Below are positions 2,441-17,881 of a DNA stretch of 23,327 nt, piece after piece. The first letter of the stretch is position 1. Every line of letters starts with the position of its first letter. The notes under the pieces are model-generated. The model was not told where the DNA came from. It ran no database searches and worked only from the letters and a program-made list of their open reading frames with translations. Source of the stretch: a virus; the IMG/VR virus record IMGVR_UViG_3300029705_000088, one strand, 5' to 3'. The translations under genes and the position numbers were made by a program.

Positions 2441-2564
2441 TAATGGCCACCTAATTCCGCATTTTTTATGGCAAAAACTGGATAATTCGCATATGTTTCC
2501 CATTTCCTGAAACTACCAATAGGCCAGTTCACAGAAACTTCACAATCTATTTACAGAATATTCA

Positions 2565-2593: not shown

Positions 2594-2639
2594 ATATATA
2601 CAGTAAAGGAAAGCCAATAGGCGACCAAAGAAAGGACAC

Positions 2640-2816: not shown

Positions 2817-2860
2817 CCTCTACCTTGCGAAAAAAAATTTAAAAAATTTCGCAAAACCTC

Positions 2861-2889
2861 TTGACAAACGACCGGAAATGTGATATAAT
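2861..2889 (+). promoter_or_regulatory. Sigma70-type promoter with upstream TTTCGCAAAACC element
   Basis: ttgaca at 2861-2866 and tgatataat at 2881-2889. Confidence 0.8.
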
Positions 2890-2938
2890 ATATATACAGA
2901 GGAACCCAAGAGGTTCCAAGAGAAAGGAAGTAAAAACT

Positions 2939-3405
2939 ATGTTACCTAAGATGATTTGCTTTGACATGGACGGCACCCTCGCAGACCTTTACAACGTGCC
3001 CAACTGGCTTGAACAGCTTCGTGCGTTTGACCCTGCCCCGTATCGGGAAGCAGAATGTATGTGGGATGAAGAGGAGCTTGCTTGCATCCTGAATACGCTG
3101 ATTGATAACGGCGTTGAAATTCGCATTATCACTTGGCTGTCAAAGGAAAGCACTCCCGAGTATGATGAAGCGGTACGCGAAGCGAAGCGAGAATGGCTTG
3201 AAGCCCTCGGCATTCCTTACACTCACTTCCACGGTGTAAAGTATGGCGCGACTAAGGCTGACAGCATCCGCAGATACCTTGAAGAGGACGAAACCGCTTG
3301 CTCTTTGATGACAATGAAAAGGTTCGCAAGGGCTGGCACATGGGCGAAGCGTTTGACCCGACCGCGATTGATATTCTTGAATTACTGTATGCGCTCTTGG
3401 ATTGA
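2939..3405 (+). CDS. HAD-superfamily 5'(3')-deoxyribonucleotidase-like phosphatase (NT5C family); the reading frame is interrupted by a -1 shift near 3283-3294
   Basis: The product begins MLPKMICFDMDGTLADL, which is HAD motif I (DxDGT). GATKAD supplies the motif III lysine. The motif IV stretch LLFDDNEKVRKGW lies in the -1 frame and ends at TGA 3403-3405. The listed frame instead runs on to 3436 as non-homologous sequence. Confidence 0.7.
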
Positions 3406-3453
3406 GCGCATACAGGTAAATTCAAAAAAGTTTTAATACAGGAAAGAAATAGC

Positions 3454-3645
3454 ATGGAAGAAAATATTCAGTTTAAACGTTTTCAAGCAATTATTGACCC
3501 AAAATCTATTGATATCCCAATTTTTAAATGTGAAGAATGTCCATTAAATGATAAATGCCATGATGAAAAACGCATAGATGATTTTGAGCATACTTGCATA
3601 GAAGCTATCTGGCATTATATTCAAACTGGTGAATTCTTGGCATAA
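3454..3645 (+). CDS. Hypothetical small Cys/His-containing protein (63 aa)
   Basis: RBS aggaaagaaatagcATG. No promoter of its own, so it is probably co-transcribed with the upstream gene. Confidence 0.6.
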   Translation: MEENIQFKRFQAIIDPKSIDIPIFKCEECPLNDKCHDEKRIDDFEHTCIEAIWHYIQTGEFLA

Positions 3646-3677
3646 AAAATTTTTTTCAAAAAATTTCGCAAAACCTC

Positions 3678-3706
3678 TTGACAAACACCGCAAAGTATGA
3701 TATAAT
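3678..3706 (+). promoter_or_regulatory. Sigma70-type promoter with TTTCGCAAAACC element
   Basis: ttgaca at 3678-3683 and tataat at 3701-3706. Confidence 0.8.
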
Positions 3707-3762
3707 ATATATACAGAGGAAATCCGGAAGCCCAAAAGAACGGAAGAAAGAGAGAAAACAAA

Positions 3763-4035
3763 ATGCCTACTGGTAGATTTAATGAAGTTGAAGAGAATGT
3801 TGTTCTGATGGAAGTCACCGCCGAAGAGCTTAAACTTATCATTGAAAGAAGAAAAAAAGAAATTACACGCGATAATTATATGGAAGAATTTAATGATTTA
3901 ATTTCTCGGGCAAGAAAAGATGGTATTTTCTTCTGCGTTCAACGTGGAAGAGTTGCTAACGGAACAAGACTGTTTGAAGAAGATGGTCCAGAATCATATA
4001 CAGATAGATTGAATAATATTCGTATCACCTATTAA
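3763..4035 (+). CDS. Hypothetical protein (90 aa)
   Basis: Conserved leader, the same as the 1528 gene, followed by ATG at 3763. Confidence 0.7.
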   Translation: MPTGRFNEVEENVVLMEVTAEELKLIIERRKKEITRDNYMEEFNDLISRARKDGIFFCVQRGRVANGTRLFEEDGPESYTDRLNNIRITY

Positions 4036-4065
4036 ATAAAAGCCGCCTTTGGGCGGTTTTTTATT
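4036..4065 (+). terminator. Intrinsic terminator (aagccgcc ttt gggcggtttttt)
   Basis: GC stem followed by a T-run. Confidence 0.75.
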
Positions 4066-4160
4066 TCAATTTCAATTTTTGTTTCCATTTTTTGGATTCA
4101 TTTTTTCATTTCAATTCATATTTTGTTTTCATTTTATTTACAAATTTTGACTTGACTTTT

Positions 4161-4196
4161 GGGCCGGCCGCCCGCGCTCCAAGCGGCCGGTTTTTG
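4161..4196. terminator. GC-rich hairpin (gggccggccgcccgcgctccaagcggccgg) plus a T-run. It is a homologue of the 531-560 hairpin and is followed by iteron copies.
   Basis: ccggccgc/gcggccgg stem. gaacaaattgtgaa copies lie at 4195-4252. Confidence 0.6.
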
Positions 4197-4308
4197 AACA
4201 AATTGTGAATTTCAATACTTTTTTGTAAGCATTTTGTAAACAAATTGTGAAGGGAAATTTTCCCAAAATGTTTGTGCAATTTGACGAAAGATTTTTTTCA
4301 AAAACCTA

Positions 4309-4337
4309 TTGACTTTTGGCTTGATATGTGGTATAAT
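4309..4337 (+). promoter_or_regulatory. Sigma70-type promoter
   Basis: ttgact at 4309-4314 and tgtggtataat ending at 4337, 17 bp apart. Confidence 0.8.
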
Positions 4338-4371
4338 ATATATACAGAAAAGAAAGAGAGGTACATCACAA

Positions 4372-4575
4372 ATGACTAACACTAAAATTTATTTTGAGGT
4401 AGAAATTGAGGGCGTAGTAACCCAATTCAATAATTTCAATGATGCCCGTGATGAGTATAACGCGCTCATGGAATGCGGTTTCTACGAAGCCACCCTTCAC
4501 AGAGTAGAAGAAGTCAATGGCGACAAATACATAGTAGTATGGAATGACAGAAGTGCTTGCTTTTTCCCCCGCTAA
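4372..4575 (+). CDS. Hypothetical small protein (67 aa)
   Basis: ATG at 4372 with RBS aaagagagg. Confidence 0.65.
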   Translation: MTNTKIYFEVEIEGVVTQFNNFNDARDEYNALMECGFYEATLHRVEEVNGDKYIVVWNDRSACFFPR

Positions 4576-4604
4576 AAATCTTTAAAAAACTTTCGCAAAA
4601 CCCC

Positions 4605-4633
4605 TTGACAAATCGCTCAAAGTATGATATAAT
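4605..4633 (+). promoter_or_regulatory. Sigma70-type promoter (canonical class-A copy aaaaccccttgacaaatcgctcaaagtatgatataat)
   Basis: ttgaca at 4605-4610 and tataat at 4628-4633. Confidence 0.85.
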
Positions 4634-4675
4634 ATATATACCCCCGATACAGGGGGTAGAAAGAGAGATAGACCA

Positions 4676-5380
4676 ATGAACACAGAAAAGATTGACCGCC
4701 GCAGACATTACATTATCGTGCTTGACACGGAAACCGCAAACACCTTCCGCGATGAAAGAGGACAGCTTGACACAAGTAGTACACTTGTGTATGACCTTGG
4801 GTGGGCGGTAACTGATAAGCATGGAAACATCTACCGCAAAAAGAGTTTTGTAAATTCTGATATTTTCTTCCATGAAGCTGAACTGATGAAGTCGGCATAC
4901 TACGCAAATAAAATCCCGCAGTATCTCGCAGACATTGAAGCGGGTAGGCGCATTGTGGCTAATACCTATCAAATGCGCTCGGCTCTGCTGAATGATATCG
5001 CAGATTTCGCAGTTGATACAATTTGCGCGCATAACGCCCGTTTTGACTACAACAGCCTAAACAGCACAGAGCGCTGGACTACAAAAAGCAAGTACCGCTA
5101 TTTTCTCCCTTATGGAATTACAATTTGGGACAGTATGAAGATGGCGCAAAGTGTAATCGGAAAGATGCCCACCTACCGCGCATTTTGTGAAGAACATGGT
5201 TATCTGACAAAAACTGGCAGACTTTCCATGACAGCGGAAAATCTTTACAGATTCATTTCCCGCAATAATGATTTTGTTGAAAATCATACAGGGCTTGAAG
5301 ATGTGGAAATTGAAGCGCAGATAATGGCGTACTGTTTCAGACAACACAAGGCAATGCAGAAAGAGTTATGGGGGAATTAA
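4676..5380 (+). CDS. DnaQ-like DEDDh 3'-5' exonuclease (234 aa)
   Basis: Exo I is IIVLDTETAN, Exo II is AHNARFDYNSL, and Exo III is HTGLEDVEIEAQ. The leader hairpin ccccc gataca ggggg lies at 4641-4656. Confidence 0.75.
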   Translation: MNTEKIDRRRHYIIVLDTETANTFRDERGQLDTSSTLVYDLGWAVTDKHGNIYRKKSFVNSDIFFHEAELMKSAYYANKIPQYLADIEAGRRIVANTYQMRSALLNDIADFAVDTICAHNARFDYNSLNSTERWTTKSKYRYFLPYGITIWDSMKMAQSVIGKMPTYRAFCEEHGYLTKTGRLSMTAENLYRFISRNNDFVENHTGLEDVEIEAQIMAYCFRQHKAMQKELWGN

Positions 5381-5429
5381 TCCCCCATGACTACCGCAAA
5401 AAAAACTTTAAGAAATTTCGCAAAACCCC

Positions 5430-5458
5430 TTGACAAAACCGCAAAAGTATGATATAAT
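5430..5458 (+). promoter_or_regulatory. Sigma70-type promoter driving the tRNA-like gene
   Basis: ttgaca at 5430-5435 and tataat at 5453-5458. Confidence 0.8.
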
Positions 5459-5498
5459 ATATATACAGAAGAGAGGAACAAATCCTCCCCGATAATAT

Positions 5499-5605
5499 GG
5501 CAGTGAGATAGAAGCGGCTCTATTTCCATAAAGATGGCTTGAGATACAACAAATGGAAACGTTCGCCATTGGAAAACGTAGGTTCAACTCCTACCACTGC
5601 CTCCA
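5499..5605 (+). tRNA. tRNA-like gene, non-canonical length (107 nt). It has a 7-bp acceptor stem, a canonical T-arm and 3' CCA, but the middle part does not fold into a standard anticodon arm.
   Basis: ggcagtg at 5499-5505 pairs with cactgcc at 5595-5601. The T-arm gtagg-ttcaact-cctac is at 5578-5594, the discriminator t is at 5602, and CCA is at 5603-5605. A D-arm-like atag aagcggct ctat is present. I could not place a 7-nt anticodon loop with U33, nor find a CUA anticodon. Confidence 0.45.
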
Positions 5606-5636
5606 AAAAATTTTTCAAAAACTTTTGCAAAACCCC

Positions 5637-5665
5637 TTGACAAATCGCTCAAAGTATGATATAAT
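5637..5665 (+). promoter_or_regulatory. Sigma70-type promoter (class-A copy)
   Basis: ttgaca at 5637-5642 and tataat at 5660-5665. Confidence 0.85.
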
Positions 5666-5749
5666 ATATATACCGAAGCAAGAGGGCACGACCTCCAATC
5701 GGTAAAATAAAAATAATGGGTAGCGACCTACGCTGAAAGGATTGATACC

Positions 5750-6139
5750 ATGGCTACTACTAACTCTACTTCCAAGAAGCTCACTAAGCGCGACCACTTC
5801 AACACCCTGCTCCAGCTCCCCGAAGTTGCCGCAAATCCCGCACTCGTTGATTTCATCAACAACGAACTTGACCTGCTGGCTCGCAAGAACAACAGCGACA
5901 ACAAGAAGCTCACTGAAAAGGACATCGCAAATCAGGGGCTTAAGGCGGCGATTCTTGAATTCGCAACCGCGAGCGGCGAACAGCACACTGTTACCGACTT
6001 CATCAAGAACGTGCCTGCGTGCGCTGGACTTTCTCCGCAGAAGATTACCGCACTGGTTCGCCAGATGGTAGAAGATGGCAAGCTTGAAAAGGTAATCGTA
6101 AAGCGCGTATCTTACTTCCGCATTCCGGAGGGGGTTTAA
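5750..6139 (+). CDS. Hypothetical protein (129 aa), cassette A gene 1, with a possible C-terminal winged helix
   Basis: An 80-nt structured leader ends ...gctgaaaggattgataccATG. Codon usage is rich in C-ending codons. It is a paralogue of 9851..10249. Confidence 0.8.
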   Translation: MATTNSTSKKLTKRDHFNTLLQLPEVAANPALVDFINNELDLLARKNNSDNKKLTEKDIANQGLKAAILEFATASGEQHTVTDFIKNVPACAGLSPQKITALVRQMVEDGKLEKVIVKRVSYFRIPEGV

Positions 6140-6170
6140 TCCCCCTCCCCCAAGAGGGGGGACGTAATCC

Positions 6171-6527
6171 ATGAGCGAACAGGAAAAAGCAATGCGGCGG
6201 CTCGGCTTTACAGATGAAGAAATCGCCGACGTAATGGACGCAGATAAGCGCATTGACAAGGGCGAAAAACTATTTGAGCAGACCGCCGAAGAAAAGAACG
6301 CAAGTAAAGAATTGCGGCGAGCACCGCGCAAAGTCGTTGACGCATACGGCAAAGCAAGCACCAAGGAACGCAAAAGCGACAACGACAAGCAAGCACTAAT
6401 CAAAGGCATTGAAATGGCAATTTTTGACAAAGTGGAAAATCTTACCATTATCAATCCCGAACGTGAAATGGAGTTTCTTTACAATGGTAGAAAATTCAAG
6501 TTGACTCTATCTGCTCCCCGAAAGTAA
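6171..6527 (+). CDS. Hypothetical protein (118 aa), cassette A gene 2
   Basis: ATG at 6171 after the stacked hairpins gaggggg/ccccctc and ccccc aagag ggggg. It is a paralogue of 10285..10692. Confidence 0.75.
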   Translation: MSEQEKAMRRLGFTDEEIADVMDADKRIDKGEKLFEQTAEEKNASKELRRAPRKVVDAYGKASTKERKSDNDKQALIKGIEMAIFDKVENLTIINPEREMEFLYNGRKFKLTLSAPRK

Positions 6528-6537
6528 ATATTTTCCA

Positions 6538-6570
6538 AAATGCATATTACAAATGTAATATGCATTTTTG
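6538..6570. promoter_or_regulatory. Perfect AT-rich palindrome (aaaatgcatattaca aa tgtaatatgcatttt), a candidate operator or terminator
   Basis: The 15-bp arms are exact reverse complements. Confidence 0.5.
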
Positions 6571-6589
6571 TTTATTTTGACGAAAATTT

Positions 6590-6790
6590 CCAGTTCACAA
6601 ATTGTTTACAAAATATACTTGATTTGTTCAAACGCGCGTCGCCGATGGTGGCGCGCGTTTTTTTTGTCAATAGGTAATGTATACAAATTTTCAGAAAATT
6701 TTTGGGCGTTTTTAGTCAATTCATACAAATCCCGCAATTATGAACATTTTGTAAACAATAAAGAAAACCTATTGACTTTTTTATTATAAT
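6590..6790. repeat. About 190-bp intergenic repeat element, copy 1 (tttacaaaatatacttgatttgttcaaac, a GC hairpin with T-run terminator at 6631-6668, then ...caaatcccgcaattatgaacattttgtaaa...)
   Basis: Close similarity to 11150..11340. The GC hairpin aaacgcgcg...cgcgcgttttttttt is visible. Confidence 0.8.
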
Positions 6791-6800
6791 ATGATATAAT
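6772..6800 (+). promoter_or_regulatory. Sigma70-type promoter
   Basis: ttgact at 6772-6777 and tgatataat ending at 6800, 17 bp apart. Confidence 0.8.
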
Positions 6801-6845
6801 ATATATACAGAAAACAAAGAGCCAACAGGCAAAGGAGATAAAACA

Positions 6846-7277
6846 ATGAAAAATATTTACGCTGTTAAGAATTACGTCCGCTTTGATGATGAATGGGAAG
6901 AAATTTTTGTGTGGGATTACAATTATGAGTATCTCACCCCCGAAGAAGCAAAAACCTTTGAAGATACTTTCCGCACGACCTGCCGCACGTTTGAGGAACT
7001 GCGCGAAGAGGTAGACAGATTCCCCGGTATCAAAGAAAATTATACCTTTTTCCGGCGCAGTCCTTACATCCGTGTGCAGGGTTCTGATTGGGATAGCTAT
7101 GGCAAATATTATGATGAAAAGCATTTCAAGAAGCCTATTAGCTTCAAGAAGGTCTGTAAAAGAGTTAATAACCTTTCCATTAATGATTTGATGAAAGTAT
7201 TAACTGCAGAAGATTTTGCAGACTGGTGGAAAGACCACGCAGGCGAAACGCAGTGCCCGTTCAAAAAGAATTCATAA
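6846..7277 (+). CDS. Hypothetical protein (143 aa)
   Basis: RBS aaaggagataaaacaATG. Confidence 0.8.
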   Translation: MKNIYAVKNYVRFDDEWEEIFVWDYNYEYLTPEEAKTFEDTFRTTCRTFEELREEVDRFPGIKENYTFFRRSPYIRVQGSDWDSYGKYYDEKHFKKPISFKKVCKRVNNLSINDLMKVLTAEDFADWWKDHAGETQCPFKKNS

Positions 7278-7296
7278 AATAAATACAAATTATACA

Positions 7297-7325
7297 TTGA
7301 CTTTCTCTCTTGGATGTGGTATAAT
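7297..7325 (+). promoter_or_regulatory. Sigma70-type promoter
   Basis: ttgact at 7297-7302 and tgtggtataat ending at 7325. Confidence 0.8.
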
Positions 7326-7367
7326 ATATATACCCTCCAAGAGAGAGGGTAGAAAGAGGTAAAACAA

Positions 7368-7604
7368 ATGAGAGTTGAGGACATGAGAAATAAGGACAAA
7401 GAGGTAACAATTAAAGACATTAAAGTCGGTGAATGCTTCATTGACTGTGATGGCGATTTAAATATGAAAATAAAAAATATTGAATCTTTTGATTATGAAT
7501 CTATTAATGCTGTAGTGCTTTTAACTGGTCAACTGTGGGCTTGTGATGAAGATAGCCCTATAACTCCAGTAAAAACGCACATTGTAATTGAATCGGAGGG
7601 ATAA
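7368..7604 (+). CDS. Hypothetical protein (78 aa)
   Basis: Leader hairpin ccctc caagaga gaggg at 7333-7349. RBS agaaagaggtaaaacaaATG. Confidence 0.7.
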   Translation: MRVEDMRNKDKEVTIKDIKVGECFIDCDGDLNMKIKNIESFDYESINAVVLLTGQLWACDEDSPITPVKTHIVIESEG

Positions 7605-7610
7605 AAAAAA

Positions 7611-8084
7611 ATGAATATTTTAATTTTTGCAATCGCTACTGTAATTAACGTATCACTTTCCACTATCCGCGCCATTACCACCATTAAAAGCGGTAAATGG
7701 CTGTCCGCTGTGATGAATGCGGTTTGTTATGGTTTCTATCCTCTGATTGTCATGCTGACCGCGCAAGGCACCGTAGGCATTTTGGTGAATATGGCAATTA
7801 CTGCCATCGCAAATTTCATCTGCGTATGGATTATTAAGTTTGTAGAGGAAAAGGCGCGTAAAGATAAACTCTGGAAGATTGAAGCATCTGTGTGTGAGCC
7901 TTACACCGAAAGCCTTTATAATGACTTAAGAGAAAATGGAATTTCTTGTAATTATATTCCCAACATTGGTAAATATACCATTTTCAACATTTACGCAGAA
8001 ACGCAAGCGCAAAGCCTTATTGTAAAAGGACTGCTTGAAGCCAACAAAGCAAAGTATTTTGTGAGCGAAACAAAAATTCTTTAA
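7611..8084 (+). CDS. Membrane protein, UPF0316/DUF2179-like (157 aa). It has N-terminal TM helices and a soluble C-terminal domain.
   Basis: RBS ggagggataaaaaaaaATG. The hydrophobic N-terminus carries a TIR motif, and the layout resembles the UPF0316 (YebE-type) family. This family assignment is recalled from memory and is not a verified similarity. Confidence 0.6.
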   Translation: MNILIFAIATVINVSLSTIRAITTIKSGKWLSAVMNAVCYGFYPLIVMLTAQGTVGILVNMAITAIANFICVWIIKFVEEKARKDKLWKIEASVCEPYTESLYNDLRENGISCNYIPNIGKYTIFNIYAETQAQSLIVKGLLEANKAKYFVSETKIL

Positions 8085-8103
8085 AAAACTTTCGCAAAAC
8101 CTA

Positions 8104-8132
8104 TTGACAAATTCAAAAAAGTGTGGTATAAT
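8104..8132 (+). promoter_or_regulatory. Sigma70-type promoter with TTTCGCAAAACC element
   Basis: ttgaca at 8104-8109 and tgtggtataat at 8122-8132. Confidence 0.8.
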
Positions 8133-8174
8133 ATATACATCCCCGATACAGGGGATAGAAAGGAATAAAACAAA

Positions 8175-8498
8175 ATGAAACTTGGTATTATTTTAGCAAA
8201 ACGTAAAATGGATGAAGAAGATACTGGACATCGCATCATTAAAATTGAAACAAACAATAATGATTTCAAACAGATTATTGATAAATCAATATATATAAAT
8301 AAACATTATAAAGAAACAGATGTTGTGACACGTAGAAAAACTTTTGATAAATTGTGTGATTTACTGGATGAAATTGTTAAACCATATTGTAAAGCAGATG
8401 AAGCAGTTATTTTTGCTTGTACAGCAGATGGTTATGCATTTATTTATGATGATGAAGATTTGGTAAATGAAACAATGAAATATATTTTTAATGAATAA
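8175..8498 (+). CDS. Hypothetical protein (107 aa)
   Basis: Leader hairpin atcccc gataca ggggat at 8139-8156. RBS aaaggaataaaacaaaATG. Confidence 0.7.
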   Translation: MKLGIILAKRKMDEEDTGHRIIKIETNNNDFKQIIDKSIYINKHYKETDVVTRRKTFDKLCDLLDEIVKPYCKADEAVIFACTADGYAFIYDDEDLVNETMKYIFNE

Positions 8499-8515
8499 AA
8501 ATTTTACTAAATCCC

Positions 8516-8544
8516 TTGACAAATAAGCAAAAGTGTGGTATAAT
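8516..8544 (+). promoter_or_regulatory. Sigma70-type promoter
   Basis: ttgaca at 8516-8521 and tgtggtataat ending at 8544. Confidence 0.8.
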
Positions 8545-8591
8545 AATAGTACCCCAATACAGGGGGCACTAAAAGAGAGAGGTAAAATAAA

Positions 8592-8849
8592 ATGACAAGA
8601 ATTGTAAAGCAAATGAAAATGGCAAAAATTTATGTTCCCGCTTGTTATGTTGATGGTGGACAAGGCTCTCGTGGCAACTGGACAAAAGAGACAATTTTTT
8701 ATACGGGTGCTTACACCAGCGAAACAGATATGCAGGAAAAATTTATTAAAGCAAAAGAAGAATGGGATAAAAAGAAAAAAGAATCGTGGGATACTTATTA
8801 TACAGAAGTAAAACTTATAGATTGGTGGGAAAATGTAGAAATTTTGTAA
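8592..8849 (+). CDS. Hypothetical protein (85 aa)
   Basis: Leader hairpin cccc aatacag ggggg. RBS agagaggtaaaataaaATG. Confidence 0.7.
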   Translation: MTRIVKQMKMAKIYVPACYVDGGQGSRGNWTKETIFYTGAYTSETDMQEKFIKAKEEWDKKKKESWDTYYTEVKLIDWWENVEIL

Positions 8850-8855
8850 AACCCC

Positions 8856-8884
8856 TTGACAAATCCGAAGAAATGTGATATAAT
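8856..8884 (+). promoter_or_regulatory. Sigma70-type promoter overlapping the end of the upstream CDS
   Basis: ttgaca at 8856-8861 and tgtgatataat ending at 8884. Confidence 0.8.
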
Positions 8885-8926
8885 AATAGTACCCCCAATA
8901 AAGGGGGGAGAAAGAGGTAAAATAAA

Positions 8927-9160
8927 ATGAAAGTTGCTGTTACACTTTATCGCACGATTGAAATGGATGTAAATGAAGAAGTTTTTGAAAGACTTCATGA
9001 AATCCATAAAGACCCTACCACTTTTGGAGAAGATGAAGATTATTCCGAAGCAAAAGAAATTATCACAAACAGACTGCTGGCACGCTGTGAACTTCATAAT
9101 GGTGAAGAAATTATCGGCGTGTATGCGGCGGAAGATGATATTCCGATTCTTGAATTTTAA
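8927..9160 (+). CDS. Hypothetical acidic small protein (77 aa)
   Basis: Leader hairpin ccccc aataaa gggggg. RBS agaaagaggtaaaataaaATG. Confidence 0.7.
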   Translation: MKVAVTLYRTIEMDVNEEVFERLHEIHKDPTTFGEDEDYSEAKEIITNRLLARCELHNGEEIIGVYAAEDDIPILEF

Positions 9161-9163
9161 TAA

Positions 9164-9200
9164 GGAGAGGGCGCAAGCCCCTCTCTTTCTTTTACTTTTG
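9164..9200 (+). terminator. Intrinsic terminator (ggagaggg cgcaag cccctctc followed by tttcttttactttt)
   Basis: GC stem followed by a T-run. Confidence 0.75.
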
Positions 9201-9472
9201 GCATTCATAATTTATTTACAAATTATTTATAAAAAACACTTGACTTTTGAGTCGCCCGCGGCCGGAGGTCACGGGCGAAATTTTGTCAAGAGATATCGTA
9301 TAAAAAAATTGTAAACATTTTATTAACAATCAAGTGAATTAGCCGTTTTCCCGTAATAAAAAATTAACAAATGAACATAGACTCGTTCACATATTATACC
9401 ATTACCAAAAATTGACAATCTGACTTGTTCTTGGATATTGAAAAAATTTTTTGAGAAATTTTGAAAAACCTC

Positions 9473-9501
9473 TTGACAAAAACGTGATTGTGTGGTATAA
9501 T
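9473..9501 (+). promoter_or_regulatory. Sigma70-type promoter with no ORF downstream (first of three tandem promoters)
   Basis: ttgaca at 9473-9478 and tgtggtataat at 9491-9501. Confidence 0.75.
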
Positions 9502-9579
9502 ATATATGTACCAAACAAAAGGATGCGCGGGGACGCCGAAAGCCACTCAAAAAAATTTGAAAAACTTTTCAAAAACCCC

Positions 9580-9608
9580 TTGACAAATCGCTCAAAGTAT
9601 GGTATAAT
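9580..9608 (+). promoter_or_regulatory. Sigma70-type promoter (class-A copy) driving an ORF-less structured transcript
   Basis: ttgaca at 9580-9585 and tataat at 9603-9608. Confidence 0.8.
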
Positions 9609-9614
9609 ATATAT

Positions 9615-9720
9615 GTCAGGGGCGAGGGTGAGTAAAACCTCGTAAAAAATCTCCTCATCAAGTGAAGTCCAAAATGCGATAAATTGACTTCAAATCTTGA
9701 TAGTATCGCAAAAAATTTTT
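9615..9720 (+). ncRNA. Candidate small non-coding RNA (about 105 nt): a 5' hairpin plus an H-type pseudoknot, ending in AAAAAATTTTT
   Basis: There is no ORF beyond a 10-codon one. The 5' hairpin is cgagg...cctcg (9623-9642). The pseudoknot has S1 at 9657-9669 paired with 9686-9701, and S2 tgcgata (9675-9681) paired with tatcgca (9704-9710), interleaved. Confidence 0.4.
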
Positions 9721-9741
9721 GAAAAACTTTTCAAAAACCCC

Positions 9742-9770
9742 TTGACAAATACCATAAAGTATGGTATAAT
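9742..9770 (+). promoter_or_regulatory. Sigma70-type promoter for cassette B
   Basis: ttgaca at 9742-9747 and tataat at 9765-9770. Confidence 0.8.
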
Positions 9771-9850
9771 ATATATACCGGGTGAGGGAAACCTACCACG
9801 GCAAACAAATTAAAAGGTTGGCAACCTAAACAGCTGAAAGGATTGATACC

Positions 9851-10249
9851 ATGGCTAACACTAATTCTACTCTCAACGCTACCGCAAAGAAGCTCACCAA
9901 GCGTGACCACTTCAACGCCCTCCTCGCTATCCCCTCTGTAGCATCTAACCCCACGCTCGTTGAATTCATTGAAAATGAGCTTGACCTACTGGCTCGTAAG
10001 AACGCTAAGCCGTCTGGCAAGCAGATGGAAAAGAAGGAAGCAAACGATGCGCTGAAGCAGGCAATGCTTGACTACCTCGCAAATGATGGCGGTCAGCACA
10101 CCGTTACTGACTTCATCAAGAATGTTCCCGAATGCGCTGGACTGTCCCAGCAGAGAATCACTGCGCTTGTCCGTCAGCTGGTAGAAGATGGCAAGATGGA
10201 AAAGGTGATTGAAAAGCGCGTTTCCTACTTCAAGCTGGCAGAGGTTTAA
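9851..10249 (+). CDS. Hypothetical protein (132 aa), cassette B gene 1, paralogue of 5750..6139
   Basis: The same structured leader ending gctgaaaggattgataccATG. About 60% identity to the cassette A protein by eye. C-ending codon bias. Confidence 0.8.
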   Translation: MANTNSTLNATAKKLTKRDHFNALLAIPSVASNPTLVEFIENELDLLARKNAKPSGKQMEKKEANDALKQAMLDYLANDGGQHTVTDFIKNVPECAGLSQQRITALVRQLVEDGKMEKVIEKRVSYFKLAEV

Positions 10250-10284
10250 TCCTCTGCCACGCCTAACCAAAAGAGGTGATGAAG

Positions 10285-10692
10285 ATGGAACTGACCCGAG
10301 CCGACAAAGCGCAAGTCAAGCGAATTCAAGAGGGCTTGCGCTGTACCGAAGAAGAAGCTCTTGAGGTTTTGTCCTATGACAAGGAAGTTGAGAAGGCTTC
10401 CGCTAATGACAGGCTGGCGTACGACCTTGACAAGGAGACAGAGAAGGAAGCGATGCGTATGGCTAACTGCCGCGACCGCAAGCCTACTGTTTACAATTTC
10501 TCCCAGCGTGAGCGCAAGGCAAATCCCACAAAGGGCGGAATAATCGCAGAATTGGCGGAGTTTTTGACAAAAAACAGTCAGTTTGCGACCGAAGATGTGG
10601 AAATTACCAACAAAGAACGGCAAATTGCGTTCAAAATTGGTGAAGATGCCTTTGAATTGACGCTTGTTCAGAAGCGAAAGCCCAAAAAGTAA
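10285..10692 (+). CDS. Hypothetical protein (about 136 aa), cassette B gene 2, paralogue of 6171..6527
   Basis: RBS aagagg. Candidate ATGs lie at 10279 and 10285; the track uses GTG at 10276. Confidence 0.7.
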   Translation: MELTRADKAQVKRIQEGLRCTEEEALEVLSYDKEVEKASANDRLAYDLDKETEKEAMRMANCRDRKPTVYNFSQRERKANPTKGGIIAELAEFLTKNSQFATEDVEITNKERQIAFKIGEDAFELTLVQKRKPKK

Positions 10693-10694
10693 AG

Positions 10695-10724
10695 AAAAGT
10701 GGGAATTTTTCCCACTTTTCACTT
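10695..10724 (+). terminator. Intrinsic terminator (aaaagtggga atttt tcccactttt)
   Basis: 10-bp stem followed by a T-run. Confidence 0.7.
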
Positions 10725-10749
10725 AAATTTTAGTCAAAAAGATGCAAAA

Positions 10750-11097
10750 ATGGCAGAAAAAGAGTTTCTTTATGTGGGTTTTTACCACGATACCGACAAA
10801 AATTTTGTTCTAAAGATTGGAACAACTAACGACCTAAAGCGCAGACAGGCAGAGCACACGCGCAATTATAGGAAAAGCCCTGAACACACAATGCCGCCAG
10901 ATGGCAAATTTACCTATTTATGGAAGCTGCCCCTTTCAAAATATAATACTCTGCGTTTTGAGGACAGAAACCGCCAAAAGTGGCAGGAAATGGGAATTGG
11001 TGAATATGTGCGGAACGACCGCTTTGTTCTCCATGAAATTCCACCACAGGTAGAAATTACCATCCGCAAAACTTATACAATCCCTCTACTGATGTAG
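10750..11097 (+). CDS. T5orf172/GIY-YIG-superfamily protein (115 aa), with no promoter of its own, inserted into copy B of the duplicated cassette
   Basis: FLYVGFYHDTDKNFVLKIGTTNDLKRRQAEH matches the GIY..YIG..R..H pattern and is paralogous to 1875..2240. The gene ends with TAG inside a terminator hairpin. Confidence 0.7.
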   Translation: MAEKEFLYVGFYHDTDKNFVLKIGTTNDLKRRQAEHTRNYRKSPEHTMPPDGKFTYLWKLPLSKYNTLRFEDRNRQKWQEMGIGEYVRNDRFVLHEIPPQVEITIRKTYTIPLLM

Positions 11098-11112
11098 AGG
11101 GATTTTCTTTTG
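11082..11112 (+). terminator. Intrinsic terminator (ccctctac tgat gtagaggg plus a T-rich tract) that contains the TAG stop
   Basis: Perfect 8-bp stem followed by attttcttttg. Confidence 0.65.
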
Positions 11113-11149
11113 TGCATAATGACGAAAATGCTGTGTTCATAATTTATTT

Positions 11150-11340
11150 ACAAAATATACTTGATTTGTTCAAACGCCCGCGACCGGAGGCCACGGGCGT
11201 TATTTTGTCAAGTGGTAATCTATACAAATTTTCAGAAATTTTTTTAACATTTTTGTACAAACCGCACAAATCCCGCAATTATGAACATTTTGTAAATAAA
11301 CAAGAATATCTATTGACATTTTTATAAAAATATGATATAA
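11150..11340. repeat. About 190-bp intergenic repeat element, copy 2 (homologue of 6590..6790)
   Basis: The same tttacaaaatatacttgatttgttcaaacgc, a GC hairpin (gcccgcgaccggaggccacgggcg), and ...caaatcccgcaattatgaacattttgtaaa. Confidence 0.8.
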
Positions 11341-11341
11341 T
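11313..11341 (+). promoter_or_regulatory. Sigma70-type promoter
   Basis: ttgaca at 11313-11318 and tgatataat ending at 11341. Confidence 0.8.
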
Positions 11342-11381
11342 ATATATACAGTAAAGAACCAACAGAAAGAGAGCAAATAAA

Positions 11382-11579
11382 ATGGATATGTGGATGAGCG
11401 ACCTTTTAGAAGCTACCGCAAGAGTAAAAGTACATAAAGGAAAAAATTTCTGTATCAAGTCTGCCCTTCCTGCGGTTGATGGCATTGTATTTGAAACTAC
11501 TTACTTCACTTACATTAAATGGTATCGCGCAGATGGACGCATTGAAGAACATTCTAAAGACGCATGGAGGAATAAATAA
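11382..11579 (+). CDS. Hypothetical protein (65 aa)
   Basis: RBS agagagcaaataaaATG. Confidence 0.65.
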   Translation: MDMWMSDLLEATARVKVHKGKNFCIKSALPAVDGIVFETTYFTYIKWYRADGRIEEHSKDAWRNK

Positions 11580-11580
11580 A

Positions 11581-11808
11581 ATGAATACACTTGTAATCAG
11601 CGAAAAGTTGATTGAATACTTTGAGCAGGAAGTAAAAGACGCAGAAAGAGCGCTTGAACGCAATCTTTACACGCCCCTTGAAATCGTAGATAACGCAAAA
11701 CAGCGAATGCTTGGAGCGACTACTCTGTGCCAGTATCTTGGTATTGAATATTTGTTCCTTGAAGCAAACTATGAAGCATACACAAAAAAACTTGAAAAAC
11801 TTTTATAA
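11581..11808 (+). CDS. Hypothetical protein (75 aa)
   Basis: ATG at 11581, in frame within the 11476..11808 ORF. RBS aggaataaataaaATG, with the stop and start adjacent. Confidence 0.65.
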   Translation: MNTLVISEKLIEYFEQEVKDAERALERNLYTPLEIVDNAKQRMLGATTLCQYLGIEYLFLEANYEAYTKKLEKLL

Positions 11809-11814
11809 AACCCC

Positions 11815-11843
11815 TTGACAAATCGCGCAAAGTATGGTATAAT
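11815..11843 (+). promoter_or_regulatory. Sigma70-type promoter (class-A copy)
   Basis: ttgaca at 11815-11820 and tataat at 11838-11843. Confidence 0.85.
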
Positions 11844-12319: not shown

Positions 12320-12475
12320 ATGACTTGTAAAGAATGCGGCTACTGTTGGAAAGAAGAGTGCGAGAAATACGCCCATTGCCACTTTGAAGGCCCGGAAGGT
12401 TGGGCACCTTGTGAGCAGGAAGAAGAGTACGAAGAAGAAGAAGATGAGGAGGATGATGAAGATGAAGCCGAATGA
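12320..12475 (+). CDS. Cys-rich small protein with a poly-acidic tail (51 aa), absent from the ORF track because it is under 60 aa
   Basis: Strong RBS ggaggtaaagaaaATG. Product is MTCKECGYCWKEECEKYAHCHFEGPEGWAPCEQEEEYEEEEDEEDDEDEAE. TGA at 12473-12475. Confidence 0.55.
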   Translation: MTCKECGYCWKEECEKYAHCHFEGPEGWAPCEQEEEYEEEEDEEDDEDEAE

Positions 12476-12731
12476 AGAAACTTTACTTGATTTAATGAAC
12501 GAATACAATGCTTTGAAACAGAAGCTTGCTAACGTTGAAAGTGCTATTAAATCACATCAAAAACAGGGCGCTAAAGAGCAGTTACGAACAGCTTTTGCTA
12601 TTTTGGAAAAAATTAACAATGACAACATTTTTGGTGATGACGATTATTATTCTGATGATTTGAATGAATATATCAATTTAACAACCATTGTTAATTGCCT
12701 TGGTTCATTTATTGAAGAAGTGGTCAAATGA
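12456..12731 (+). CDS. Hypothetical coiled-coil protein (about 91 aa); the start is uncertain (12444 to 12462) and it overlaps the previous gene in another frame
   Basis: RBS gaggagga lies upstream of a cluster of ATGs. The ORF runs 12384..12731. Confidence 0.6.
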   Translation: MKMKPNEETLLDLMNEYNALKQKLANVESAIKSHQKQGAKEQLRTAFAILEKINNDNIFGDDDYYSDDLNEYINLTTIVNCLGSFIEEVVK

Positions 12732-13210
12732 CCACTTCTTTTTCGTTATTTTATACAAAAATAATTTGTTTACAAATTATGATAGATTTGTTCACATTTG
12801 CGCCGCCCGATTGCGCTCGCGCAGGGCGGGATTTCCATTTTTTACCATATTTACAAAATTTTGCGGCGATTTCCAGGATTTTCCAGTCCAGCCAGATTTT
12901 CCCATATTCTACACCTGTCAAGCGGTCCGGGCGCGGGCGCTGCGGACCGAGTTCCCGTTCGGACCCCCATATGCGAATTTTTTGCTACTTCTAGCGACCC
13001 TCAGCCTATATGCGCATTTTCCTATAATTCTAGTACCCCAGCCAGCCGACCGGAATTGTAAAATTTTTGTAAAAATTTTTGTAAAATTTTTATGAACGCG
13101 CGATTTCTCCAGAGATACGCCAGTGCTTATCTATTGAGAGCTACGGCTTAAATAAAGACCCTCTCCCTCACATTTACTCAAAAATTTTTTTGCGTGGCTT
13201 AAAATGCCGA
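12732..13210. repeat. About 480-bp non-coding island with a GC-rich core (12800-13060), several repeat families, and the boundary between the two promoter classes
   Basis: Tandem repeats of about 42 bp lie at 12965-13006 and 13007-13048. A triple tgtaaaattttt repeat lies at 13056-13095. Hairpins include cggtccg..cggaccg, and atttcc(a)g direct repeats are present. Confidence 0.7.
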
Positions 13211-13213
13211 AAT

Positions 13214-13242
13214 TTGACTTTTTTAAAAATTTATGATATAAT
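13214..13242 (+). promoter_or_regulatory. Sigma70-type promoter, class B (ttgactttttt aaaaatt tatgatataat)
   Basis: ttgact at 13214-13219 and tataat at 13237-13242. The promoter plus leader is about 60 bp and nearly identical to 16085-16145. Confidence 0.8.
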
Positions 13243-13274
13243 ATATATACAAAATAAAAAAAGGAGATAAAATT

Positions 13275-13721
13275 ATGAATTACAATTCTAATGACATTCT
13301 TAAGATGATTCAGGAGGGCAAATCTGTAGATGATATTGCCAAGGAATTCACCGCCGCACTGAACGAGGCAAAAAAGATTGACGAAGCCAAGAGAGCAGAG
13401 GCTAAGGAAGAAGAGGCTAGAAAGAAGGTCCAGGAGAGGGCAGATAAGATTGCGGACATGGGCAAGATGAAGGATGCTATCGCAGCCTACATTAAGCGCT
13501 GGTACCCCAACCTTGCCGCCCAGTATAAGGATATTGATATCACCGCAGAAGACCTTGTTGATTTGGTTGATGAAACTGTTGCGGAAATGCGCGAAGCATT
13601 CTCTATGTTTGGTAATTTTGCTCATATGCTGAAGCCTGGCAATGCTACCCTCTCAATTAAGACTGATAAGTCTAATTTGGATAATGTTTTTGATACTTTC
13701 TTTAAGAACAATGGTATTTAA
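13275..13721 (+). CDS. Hypothetical protein (148 aa) with high-expression-like codon usage
   Basis: Strong RBS aaaggagataaaattATG. C/G-ending codons are enriched relative to the neighbouring genes. Confidence 0.85.
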   Translation: MNYNSNDILKMIQEGKSVDDIAKEFTAALNEAKKIDEAKRAEAKEEEARKKVQERADKIADMGKMKDAIAAYIKRWYPNLAAQYKDIDITAEDLVDLVDETVAEMREAFSMFGNFAHMLKPGNATLSIKTDKSNLDNVFDTFFKNNGI

Positions 13722-13876: not shown

Positions 13877-14098
13877 AAGAAAGGATGAGGGATGACGATG
13901 ACGAGGGAAAAGTGATGAGTGTCTAGTGGAGCCGAACGGCACGACACCTCTCCAATTTTCGCAATTTTTATTACTTATTACTTTATTTACTTATTATTAT
14001 CTATATAATTATTATCTATTATCTATACAGTTGTTATCCATTATCAACCTATTACTTACTACCTACTACCTATTATCTATATTGTTACCTACCTACTA

Positions 14099-14299
14099 TC
14101 ACAACACCCAAATAACTCCCTGCCGCAACAACTTCCTTCTCTCCTTGCCAATCTCCTTAAACCTCTTCCTCTCCTCCGCCTCAAACCCTCTCAACAACCA
14201 ACATCCAAGAGCAGAAGAAAAAGAAACTCTTTTCAACACATACCTAACAACTGCGCCTAGCACCAAGCCAACTACTACACCTGCCGCGACCCCTATCAT
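14099..14299 (-). CDS. Small membrane protein (66 aa), the last gene of the minus-strand operon
   Basis: Its start overlaps the upstream stop as ATGA. It has an N-terminal hydrophobic helix and a basic C-terminus. Confidence 0.6.
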   Translation of the reverse strand: MIGVAAGVVVGLVLGAVVRYVLKRVSFSSALGCWLLRGFEAEERKRFKEIGKERRKLLRQGVIWVL

Positions 14300-15059: not shown

Positions 15060-15145
15060 TATTTAGATATAATATGAAAAATTACCCTTTTTTCCTTTTT
15101 ACTAACTATTAAAAATTGCCCTCACTAACTATTAAAAATTACCCT
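15060..15145. repeat. Three copies of the 24-bp motif (plus form ACTAACTATtAAAAATTrCCCTtt; minus form AAAGGGTAATTTTTAATAGTTAGT)
   Basis: Copies lie at about 15064-15084, 15091-15113 and 15124-15145. Confidence 0.75.
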
Positions 15146-15146
15146 T

Positions 15147-15830
15147 TTATTTCTTTTTACTATTATATACTAAAGATACATTTAATAATTTTTTCTTTGG
15201 TACTTTATTAATATAAATGGTTTCATAGTCAATTAATTTTGAATTATATAATAATTCTAAAGCGTGATTAATTATATCATAAGCTCTCTAATTATTTTTT
15301 ATATATATACCTATATGTTCTGCTATTTCATTCAAAGTAAAAATATAATTTTCCTACTATTTTAATCTTTTATTCTAATCTTCTTTATATTTATATTTCT
15401 AAACTAAATAAATATAAATTTTAATAATATGTTCCCGACAGTTATCCTATAAATATTCTAAAGTTGCTAAAGGAATATCTAAATAAATATTTTCTTTTAC
15501 TGGCAAATAATAATCTCCATTCTCTTTTTCCACTAAATACCCCTAATCTTTTAATGACTTCAAATGCGCTCTTAATGTTTTTGGACTTTTAATTTTTAAT
15601 TTTTCACACATATCTATTTGTTTTGGAATAATTGATTTCTTTACTACTGTTTCATATACTTCATAAGCCACACCCTTATCATCTTTTTTACAAACTTTTT
15701 CTGCTATTGAAATAGACTATAACAATCCATACAATTCACCATCTAATGTATTTGTATTTAAAAAAGTTTCATAATCTAATGTAGTATCCGCAGGAAACCT
15801 TTTTTCAATCTAATCTTTTGATTTTACCAC
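15147..15830 (-). CDS. Double winged-helix DNA-binding protein, RepA/replication-initiator-like (about 227 aa); the frame contains 8 in-frame TAG codons and no TAA or TGA
   Basis: RBS GGAGG, 7 nt, then GTG at 15830. The frame stays open to TAA at 15147-15149 apart from 8 TAGs. The translation carries two clean winged-helix motifs, MCEKLKIKSPKTLRAHLKSLKD*GYLVEKENGDYYLPV and FTLNEIAEHIGIYIKNN*RAYDIINHALELLYNSKLI. No ORF of at least 60 aa is called here in any frame. Confidence 0.6.
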
Positions 15831-15849
15831 AAGGAAACCTCCAATCTAA

Positions 15850-16065
15850 ATTTTACTAACTATGAAAAATTACCTTTCTAGTCGCACAATTATTTCAATT
15901 TCATTTATTTATATTTTACCTTTTTTGTCCAATATTTTTAGGTAATTTTACCTTTTTTAAAAGTAATATTCTAATAATATTTCTATTAAAAAATTAATAA
16001 AAATATTACTTACTAACTATGAAAAATTACCTAAAATTTTACTAACTATTAAATTTTACCCTTTT
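15850..16065. repeat. At least four further copies of the 24-bp motif family, between the divergent minus-strand operon and the plus-strand promoter
   Basis: ttttactaactatgaaaaattacctttc at 15851-15878, weaker copies at 15905-15960, then copies at 16007-16030 and 16035-16062. Confidence 0.75.
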
Positions 16066-16573: not shown

Positions 16574-17041
16574 ATGAAAGAAATTAAATATTGTAAAACT
16601 TGCGGTTTCCGAGACCCCTAGCAACCTGTATGTCAGTTGCTCGGGCATTAGATAAACCCAGAAATTGATTATTGTTCTCGGCATAATGCCGAACCTTTCA
16701 CCTGCGCGCAATGTCACCGCATTTTAACTTTACCAATTTTCCTAACTCCTGGAGGCGCAATCTGTGATGAATGCCGACTAGCCTTATCTACTTGCGCTGG
16801 TTGCCGCAATTCTTCAACTTGTCTTTTTGAAAGCGACCCATCTCCAGTGCTGAAAGTAATTCAACAACAAATCCGTCAGGGAAACATGGTAATTCAACAA
16901 CAAGTAAAAAACCCGTTGCGCATCCAAATTACCTGTGAAAAAGGTTGTCCTTGTTACGATAAAGAAAATGGTTGCCGTAGACAATTAAATTCATGTGAGA
17001 ACCACAAATCTATTATCCAGGAGGAAGAAACTAATGATTGA
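16574..17041 (+). CDS. Cys-rich protein (155 aa) with two in-frame TAG codons, missing from the ORF track as a full-length ORF
   Basis: The frame is open from ATG 16574 to TGA 17039-17041 apart from TAG at 16619-16621 and 16649-16651. It contains CxxC-type pairs throughout, and the track ORF 16847..17041 is its 3' end. Confidence 0.55.
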
Positions 17042-17375
17042 CCCCAATCGTGTCTTAGACTTCATTGACCATTTCACATAGGCTGGCGACCGCAAACAAG
17101 TAATTGAATGCTTCACTTGCGGCAATTGCTTCTGGTTCGCTTATATTCTCCATGGACGTTTCTCTGCCGAACCAAATGTCCAATGTGAAATTATGTATGA
17201 CGAAGTAGAAAATCATTTCGCCACAAAAATTGATAATGAAATTTATGATATTACCGGCATCGTAACCAATCAATACGATTGGATTGCGTGGTCTGACTTA
17301 TGGAAGAAAGACCCTTCTTTAAGCAAACGTATTATTCGTGATTGTGTAAAACAGGAGATAATAGAAAATGAATAA
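17034..17375 (+). CDS. Hypothetical protein (113 aa) with one in-frame TAG (17079-17081)
   Basis: Strong RBS caggaggaagaaactaATG at 17034. The ATG overlaps the upstream stop. The frame is otherwise open to TAA at 17375, and the track shows only the distal 60 aa. Confidence 0.65.
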
Positions 17376-17613
17376 TTTTTTTAAACTTGTAATTTCTGAC
17401 CGCGTAGATTATATTAATCTTAATTTTGTAGAACAAGTTAATATCAGTAATGCTTGTGATAGTAAGAAAAGACCTACAGTAACATTCTATTATAGGAGTG
17501 GAAAAACTTCAGAATATAATATGGGCAAAGAAGATTTACAAAAATTAATTCAAATCTTAGAGGAAAAAGATATTTATATTGAACCAATAGTAGCGAGGAA
17601 ATTAAATGAGTAA
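17368..17613 (+). CDS. Hypothetical protein (81 aa)
   Basis: Its ATG overlaps the upstream stop. The stop is TAA. Confidence 0.7.
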   Translation: MNNFFKLVISDRVDYINLNFVEQVNISNACDSKKRPTVTFYYRSGKTSEYNMGKEDLQKLIQILEEKDIYIEPIVARKLNE

Positions 17614-17881
17614 ATTTAACATCTATTATGCGGGAACTCATTAGGCAGAATTCCAAGAGGAATTGGAATTTGAGACACCGGCCGCCGCACTTGATTACGC
17701 GGAGAAACGAGCCATTGAGGATTATGAAAGTAATTGCGGCGGCAACGGTTATCTATCTTGGGAAGAGTGTCGTGAGGAATTAATTCATTCAGGCGAAGAA
17801 GAAATAACTGATGAGGATGTGGATAATTATTACAGAGAAGTAATATACTCCACAATACAATACCATGTAGAAAAAATATAA
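17606..17881 (+). CDS. Hypothetical acidic protein (91 aa) with one in-frame TAG (17642-17644)
   Basis: RBS gaggaaattaaATG at 17606 overlaps the upstream TAA (ATGAGTAA). The frame is open to TAA at 17881, and the track begins the ORF at TTG 17663. Confidence 0.6.

Follow-up and report, generated by a model that had tools for sequence, protein, structure and literature searches.

A GC-rich non-coding island as a possible transcriptional insulator and recombination junction in a TAG-recoded gut phage

What is the role of a GC-rich, repeat-laden stretch of about 480 bp that holds no evident gene? The question is raised by positions 12732–13210, here called the island, of IMG/VR virus record IMGVR_UViG_3300029705_000088, a 23,327-nt stretch of DNA (the window) that is the visible portion of the roughly 176–186-kb genome of an uncultivated, TAG-recoded gut phage; all coordinates are positions in this 23-kb window. 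An earlier note had placed the island between two promoter regimes and offered three candidates for it: a replication origin, a packaging site or an early/late boundary element. The last fits best, because the island is flanked by a terminator and a promoter of the type that we call B2, is the last of a series of cassettes in the left block of the window, and lies where promoter type, coding strand and genetic code divide; we found nothing that supports an origin or a packaging site. Our leading reading, put forward tentatively, is that this composite non-coding stretch acts as a transcriptional insulator and regulatory boundary and also as a recombination junction. It draws on the anatomy of the island, its conservation among relatives, the family of cassettes to which it belongs and the promoter and code boundary at which it lies.

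The gap that contains the island, 12732–13274, separates an 89-aa gene (12462–12731) from a 148-aa gene, both on the plus strand. Its core at 12800–13060 has a GC content of 52.9%, compared with 35.1% for the whole window. Of all 261-nt segments of the window, 0.9% are as GC-rich as this core, and those lying elsewhere are coding; among non-coding gaps the island alone exceeds 40% GC, and some coding stretches are equally GC-rich. From left to right, it consists of the terminator T1, two cassette units (each a TTGTTYACAA/TTTACAAA box and a GC hairpin), TTTCC words, repeats with a 39-nt period, an AT-rich and spacer segment found in this haplotype only, and a B2 promoter (Table 1). Most of what the earlier note had listed is present as described, namely a core above 50% GC, GC hairpins including CGGTCCG...CGGACCG, short atttcc-type repeats and a triple AT-rich repeat. 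The two tandem repeats that it gave as about 42 bp are also real, with a period of 39 nt.

Table 1. Features of the island and its edges, in window coordinates
Feature	Positions	Strand	Basis or description
T1, intrinsic terminator of the 89-aa gene	12714–12741	+	Terminator scan; inverted repeat I12
AT-box 1	12761–12796	n/a	Operator-like palindrome ATAATTTGT-TT-ACAAATTAT
Hairpin 1 (hp1), GC hairpin	12803–12829	+	6 bp, 3-nt bulge, 4 bp, CTCG loop (fold)
Four TTTCC(C)A words: GATTTCCA, GATTTCCA, ATTTTCCA, ATTTTCCCA	12830–12903	n/a	Repeat search
AT-box 2, TATTTACAAAATTTTG	12848–12863	n/a	TATTTACAAAAT word common to other cassettes
Hairpin 2 (hp2), CGGTCCG...CGGACCG	12922–12948	+	Variable basal stem, conserved GCG-CGGG-CG apex
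R1 and R2, direct repeats, CATATGCrAATTTT...CTAG...CC	12966–13043	n/a	Repeat search, family D2
AT-rich 11–12-nt repeat TTGTAAAA(A)TTT, three copies	13056–13091	n/a	Tandem repeat finder
Spacer with possible local hairpins at 13092–13130 and 13136–13165	13092–13213	+	Type I relatives only
B2-type sigma-70 promoter of the 148-aa gene (13275–13721)	13214–13242	+	Promoter scan, census

The insulator reading follows in part from this layout, since the island sits between the strong terminator T1 and the B2 promoter. T1 has every feature of an intrinsic terminator, a GC stem-loop with an immediate U-tract on the same strand and 3′ of its unit: its 12-bp stem (GAAGAAGTGGTCA/TGACCACTTCTT) is directly followed by a T-run at 12742–12751. 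Downstream, AT-box 1 holds two TTTGTTYACA boxes, at 12765 and 12787, with a spacing of 22 bp. hp1 looks like a weak terminator: its tail GATTTCCATTTTTTA (12830–12844) is T-rich and the terminator scan flags it as terminator-like, and, given the tail ATTTCCATTTTTT, only a lenient scan accepts it as an intrinsic terminator. The 12-mer of AT-box 2 recurs at 506 and 11145 and, on the minus strand, at 11287–11298, and TTTCC-like words also occur in other long untranslated regions, at 1100–1290 and 2440–2520. The second hairpin, hp2, is followed by the tail AGTTCCCGTT and has no T-run, so that it does not qualify as an intrinsic terminator. Beyond it, R1 and R2 agree at 22 of 29 positions (12966–12994 against 13005–13033), a level equalled by 1 of 300 dinucleotide shuffles. 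The AT-rich array that follows could be a degenerate B2-like promoter, to judge by its TTGTAA, 17–18 nt of pure AT and TATGAA. The intact promoter has TTGACT, a 14-nt pure-AT spacer and then TGATATAAT, with an extended −10 consensus.

Relatives divide the island into parts with different histories. Through two flanking proteins, which are also carried by metagenomic contigs of up to 176–186 kb from JGI and ENA samples, we recovered 16 distinct contig versions of the locus. In all of them 12717–12875, spanning the terminator, AT-box 1, hp1 and AT-box 2, is essentially constant: T1 is identical in 16 of 16, AT-box 2 is identical throughout, and AT-box 1 differs by one G-to-A change in two contigs, with an 8-nt insert just 5′ of it in version L024. 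The adjacent 89-aa protein is 72–87% identical in the same 16 contigs. From 12876 to about 13040 there are two haplotypes, types I and II, about 20% apart, plus two mosaics (L034 and L038); diversity at the locus is low. Among type I relatives, island bins are mostly 92–100% identical, with lower values of 83% where the hairpin varies and 78% where 12 nt are deleted, and the coding bins just upstream are 67–98% identical, mostly below 93%. The third and fourth TTTCC words vary between haplotypes. Type II relatives retain both R1 and R2, and in five of the six type II variants that span both repeats a G/A difference is the same in the two copies, the exception being L024.

Further right, type II relatives lack the sequence from about 13050 to about 13870, including the AT-rich array and the 148-aa gene, and have instead two tandem B2 promoters directly after R2, which there adjoins the −35 element. 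Of the four type I relatives, L006, L007 and L034 have two copies of the array unit and L038 has a degenerate third; type II has none. Because of this loss, the unit common to all versions is 12714 to about 13040, and the right third is accessory. To the question raised by the earlier note, whether the island is conserved or variable, the answer is thus both: near-constant at 12717–12875, and missing at 13050–13210 in type II. Since the left 135 nt are near-identical among otherwise diverged relatives, the island would, on our leading reading, double as a homologous-recombination junction that joins different right-hand modules.

The earlier note saw no coding potential here and held that a conserved protein-coding gene in relatives would overturn its view; none is evident. 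Open reading frames (ORFs) of 56–135 aa are present in the island, those of 87–135 aa because stop codons are rare there, and the peptides are nonsense-like. The open frame differs between types I and II, with indels of +1, −2 and +3 nt, and when the 135-aa ORF was compared with 5.8 billion proteins, the sole match was the same spurious ORF at this locus in the sister contig L038. With frames that are not conserved, frameshifting indels and no homologues beyond that locus, we reject the island as a protein-coding gene.

The island is not alone in its design. It is the largest of about seven cassettes, none of which lies to its right, that combine an AT-rich TTGTTYACAA box with a GC hairpin, and it comprises two cassette units back to back plus a unique core of hp2 and R1/R2. 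The box is strongly over-represented in the window: TTTGTTYACA occurs 12 times against 0.3 expected, with no copy right of 12796, and TTGTTCACAA with at most one mismatch occurs 30 times against 3.7 expected; both lie almost only in non-coding DNA at or left of 12797. Boxes of the TTTGTTYACA type also precede GC hairpins at about 508, 4137, 6605, 9215 and 11147. GC-rich stretches in non-coding DNA are found only at or left of 12969 (527, 868, 1005, 2384, 4148, 6626, 9244, 11167, 12793 and 12908), and each adjoins a box. In three cassettes, at 6585–6700, 9200–9320 and 11130–11250, a conserved AT box is followed by a CGCCCG-13 nt-CGGGCG hairpin and then a T-run, a unit shaped like an intrinsic terminator; relatives preserve the stems by compensatory changes, and each cassette lies after the upstream gene's own terminator and about 110–190 nt before the next promoter.

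The cassettes also show a link to one promoter type. A census by regular expression (TTGAyn-N14-16-TGnTAwAmT) yielded two types, which correspond to classes A and B of the earlier note. The B1 type (class A; aaaaccccTTGACAaa, a GC-containing spacer and TGrTATAAT) has 16 copies, all within 123–11843, which bear an aaaacccc upstream element; many of the predicted B1 transcripts would start with a CCCCnAUACAGGGG hairpin. The B2 type (class B; TTGAyw, a 100% AT spacer of type TTTTTATAAAAAATA and TGATATAAT) has ten copies, at 2565, 6772, 11313 and 13214 and at six positions to the right of the island. As the earlier note had it, class A is confined to the left and all six promoters right of the island are of the AT-spacer class B; its statement that every left promoter is class A fails on the B2 copies at 2565, 6772 and 11313. 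At or left of the island, four of four B2 promoters follow an AT-box/hairpin cassette, compared with 3 of 16 B1 promoters (P of about 0.007 by our hypergeometric count). The over-representation of the boxes, the terminator shape of cassettes and their link to B2 promoters, together with the conservation of 12717–12875, are the other basis of the insulator reading.

Coding strand and genetic code change at the same place. Within the window, minus-strand genes and TAG-recoded genes occur right of the island only, as had been claimed. The minus-strand frame 15147–15869 is open only with TAG read as sense and has many in-frame TAGs; the product at this position in ENA is 154 aa with a faint HTH_11 match, and ENA gene calls add recoded genes at 16574–17881 on the plus strand. 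The phage appears to use genetic code 15.

How might such an island work? We infer termination, factor binding and timing as follows. The tandem hairpins would stop plus-strand read-through from B1-driven immediate-early units and so leave the downstream gene with its B2 promoter as the sole source of expression. A factor of the phage or the host, bound at the invariant AT boxes and at the repeats, would time that promoter or adjust its activity. If so, the island would be one more example of conserved regulatory DNA that organizes the fast-evolving early regions of large phages and enables module swaps, a result useful for annotation and unsurprising, ordinary in kind with its details unexplained. 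Nevertheless, promoter type, coding strand and genetic code of a TAG-recoded phage all switch at the island, which is a defined cis element with which to ask how such phages separate host-readable from recoding-dependent genes; the TTGTTYACAA box with its fast-flipping, covarying GC hairpins is a tractable, unexplained motif system.

Several points weigh against an insulator. Termination, promoter use and timing are all inferred from sequence, and the model names no factor for the AT boxes, the TTTCC words or R1/R2, which stand as putative sites. ATTTCCA intervenes between the hp1 stem and its T-run, and hp2, with its conserved apex and no T-run, is not a simple terminator and is left unexplained. 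Three cassettes stand before B1 promoters, not B2. The extreme conservation of the left part could come from recent recombination instead of function, and the apparent covariation of the hairpins could come from mutation, with template switching giving one-step compensatory changes without selection on RNA. Such mutation is visible at the hairpin 11173–11197, where the apical 13 nt are the exact reverse complement between sister sequences, the window against L006 (CGACCGGAGGCCA and TGGCCTCCGGTCG) and L027 against L031 (CGACCGGATGCCG and CGGCATCCGGTCG), as minute inversions, while the stems change complementarily. These exact flips imply that hairpin-mediated template switching is active in the lineage. 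Minute inversions at hairpin loops are known in chloroplast non-coding DNA, and quasi-palindrome template-switch mutation is a known process; the apical flips here are alike, and the likeness concerns how the hairpins mutate, not what they do.

The same hairpins bear on a different explanation, that the island encodes a plus-strand non-coding RNA of about 250–400 nt that starts just 5′ of hp1, contains hp1, hp2 and R1/R2 and uses the CGGG apex as a recognition element. We consider this unlikely. In hp2, which speaks for it, four stem variants all pair (CGGTCCG/CGGACCG, CGGCTCG/CGAGCCG, CGGGTCGC/GCGACCCG and the type II form), with at least two double changes: two pairs are altered on both sides, and the covariation score is matched by 2 of 500 shuffles. 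G.U pairs are possible on the plus strand only, the apex stays constant while the stem varies, and by manual check hp2 is not a flip of any other variant. In the consensus hairpin at 13092–13130, four of four substitutions preserve plus-strand pairing through G.U; a competing long-range helix between 13098–13103 and 13190–13195 has two double changes and also two mismatches. The island is more conserved than its flanking genes, TGATAGATT at 12779–12787 resembles a weak extended −10 element, and the window has another non-coding RNA, a tRNA-like gene at 5499–5605. But that −10-like element has no −35 element, a scan found no plus-strand sigma-70 promoter before hp1, and no convincing promoter or terminator brackets the proposed RNA. 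ARAGORN found no tRNA or tmRNA in the island; Rfam, whose families include tRNA, tmRNA, ribozymes, GOLLD and ROOL, gave no match there at E ≤ 1 with the whole window and, at E ≤ 10 with the island alone, only noise below gathering scores. Folding energies of the island or its pieces on either strand are no better than those of shuffles (z from −0.9 to +0.4). Only the hp2 helix covaries; the other helices of the island are invariant or altered on one side only, hp1 shows no pairing-informative variation, and a small hairpin considered within R1 (GCTA/TAGC) is unsupported, its 5′ arm being altered without compensation in type II. Relatives of type II lack the right third, 12876–13040 accumulates indels and about 20% divergence without a compensating pattern, and template switching at hairpins can mimic covariation.

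The repeats invite other explanations. Were the island a replication origin, R1/R2 would serve as iterons and the AT-rich segment after them as an unwinding element, with the GC hairpins as primosome signals or part of a transcription-activated origin. This is decidedly improbable, even though conserved non-coding sequence, a local excess of C on the plus strand (GC skew of −0.12 to −0.20) and two significant direct repeats speak for it; in both haplotypes these repeats lead into about 40 bp made up almost wholly of A and T, namely the 12-mer array in type I and a pure-AT-spacer promoter in type II. The repeats number only two, the copy number of the array varies and type II replaces it, and skew at window scale tracks gene orientation. 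There are no canonical DnaA boxes (TT(A/T)TNCACA, at most one mismatch) in 12732–13210, and the window as a whole is not enriched in them, with 11 compared with 7.8 expected; 30 neighbouring ORFs showed no domain of a replication initiator, helicase or primase. The island thus lacks the phased iteron array, conserved AT-rich element and initiator gene of an iteron origin, and better iteron arrays lie elsewhere, at 565–861 with an 11-bp period and at 15098–16061. On sequence features the latter is a better candidate than the island for an origin or operator: five copies of the 24-nt iteron TTTACTAACTATTAAAAATTACCC, against none expected, lie in non-coding DNA of 21–26% GC around the recoded minus-strand gene. 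Nor do we give much credence to the idea that 12876–13040 has no function and is decayed acquired DNA or a lost gene, carried beside functional terminators and boxes and homogenized by recombination. Its GC content is out of keeping with other non-coding DNA of the genome, its long ORFs are open in shifting frames, and two haplotypes with mosaics resemble recombination more than steady purifying selection. Against this, we found no match to GenBank phages at the DNA level, the whole window included, none in IMG/VR with four patterns and none in GTDB genomes, the last of which argues against host-derived attP-like DNA; nor was there a homologue among plasmid-free viral collections or proteins. 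A single metagenome scan returned seven contigs of 57–65% GC with only 19–33 nt in common, which we judge to be chance. Also, neither haplotype has lost hp2 or either repeat, although the two have diverged by about 20%. Very improbable, in turn, is that the island marks a boundary in the genome, physical or temporal, whether as the inner edge of a long terminal repeat or a pre-early, first-entering block like that of phage T5, or as a packaging site or terminus. About 12.7 kb on the left carry small fast-evolving ORFs, strong host-type promoters and the standard code, with large repeat-rich untranslated regions more conserved than the ORFs, in agreement with a description of the T5 left terminal repeat (Davison, bioRxiv 10.1101/866236), and promoter type, strand use and code switch at the island. 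Contig ends also cluster at its hairpins, where L031 and L037 stop at the 3′ side of hp1, L011 and L013 begin at 12846, and L014, L036, L009 and L010 break at hp2. As many other contigs cross the island without a break, we put this clustering down to low coverage or to microdiversity at GC hairpins. Scanned ORFs of the window yielded no identified terminase, with one weak PHROG match (E = 0.002), which together with the read-through leaves the packaging site of the earlier note without support, as the missing DnaA boxes, the inconstant array and the lack of a nearby initiator gene do for its origin.

Comparison with known systems returns us to the insulator and junction. T4-type phages have PeSLs, small composites of a terminator stem-loop and an early promoter that mediate module shuffling (Arbiol et al. 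2010, PMC2839356; Comeau et al. 2014, PMC4122927). Similarly, conserved non-coding terminator/promoter modules recur here between small variable early ORFs, and gene replacements between relatives have their junctions at these modules. Types I and II part at about 13040, after R2 and at the B2 −35 element; the 148-aa gene is present or absent by haplotype, and other replacements lie at promoter cassettes. To the right of the island, the B2 promoters at 18462 and 21873 each stand immediately next to a simple terminator hairpin, in the order hairpin then promoter. The differences are as clear. A PeSL is about 50 bp long, compared with about 480 bp for the island, which adds AT boxes, TTTCC words, a non-terminator hairpin and 39-nt repeats, and the phage is unrelated. 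A stem-loop next to its promoter is also not what we see, the island hairpins lying 266–500 nt upstream of the promoter with other elements between. Compared with ordinary tandem intrinsic terminators, T1 is canonical, and hp1 and the hairpins at 6633, 9250 and 11173 are GC stems with T-rich tails on the coding strand; by contrast, hp2 has no U-tract, the tract of hp1 is interrupted, and every cassette hairpin has a conserved AT-rich box before it, an element that ordinary terminators can do without.

Among published accounts of large untranslated regions that are rich in repeats and better conserved than the early ORFs around them, the closest is that of the T5 left terminal repeat, which combines untranslated repeat regions with an injection stop signal (Davison, bioRxiv 10.1101/866236). 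Like them, the island is untranslated, rich in repeats and palindromes, much better conserved than adjacent ORFs and placed at a boundary with the remaining genome. What defines the T5 regions is a set of eight paired DnaA boxes, TT(A/T)TNCACA, together with a mapped injection stop (bioRxiv 10.1101/866236). The recurrent box here, TTGTTCACA, has G at position 3, and paired DnaA boxes are absent from the island. The least probable of the readings that we entertain extends this likeness: the 12.7-kb left block, with its standard code, B1 promoters and tRNA-like gene, would be a pre-early module, expressed or even entering the cell ahead of the remaining genome, and the island, along with the other repeat-rich untranslated regions, a cis-acting boundary signal, similar to the T5 injection stop, that holds back the B2-driven, TAG-recoded genes until early products, possibly including a suppressor-type tRNA, have been made. 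Were this true, the timing of genome entry or transcription would be tied to stop-codon recoding.

The tRNA-like gene at 5499–5605, on the plus strand, has its own B1 promoter at 5430–5458. It scores 29.4 bits with the Rfam tRNA model (gathering score 29) and is missed by ARAGORN; it has a cloverleaf with a 41-nt insert in the anticodon arm, an encoded CCA end and a fold z of −2.4. No CUA anticodon was identified in it, and the gene could bear on TAG recoding.

Other parts of the left block carry related elements. A 1-kb untranslated region at 405–1440 has about 25 boxes of the TTGTTCACAA type, phased at 11 bp in 565–861, with GC hairpins at 527–566, 733–750 and 1005–1041 and direct repeats such as CTTTAGTATGGTAAAG and CGATTGTTAAAA; a smaller box array lies at 2296–2382. 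Two paralogous ORFs, 5750–6139 and 9851–10249, share about 71% nucleotide identity and have weak winged-helix (Mnd1 HTH) matches, making their products candidates for DNA-binding proteins of the recurrent boxes. ORFs 1875–2240 and 10699–11097, each followed by an AT-box/hairpin cassette, have weak matches to T5orf172 (GIY-YIG-related) and may be mobile endonuclease-like genes. The protein encoded at 4676–5380 shares about 40% identity with proteins of large Enterococcus phages and 29% with one protein of the TAG-recoded gut phage phAss-1 (PMC10607447). From the extended −10 promoters and this distant similarity to Enterococcus phages, the host is probably Gram-positive.

At the start of the window, the contigs of several samples (including L039, 1–110) begin at the same poly-A tracts of 26–30 nt, and the sequence to the left differs between assemblies, as at an assembly break in low-complexity DNA or a real end. 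We set the window start aside as uninformative about a genome end, the breaks falling at a 30-nt poly-A tract with assembly-dependent sequence on its left. Right of the island, 13950–14110 is almost G-free and rich in repeats (TTATTAC and TTATCTA units), with GC skew down to −0.8; at 52–63% identity it is the most divergent segment among close relatives.

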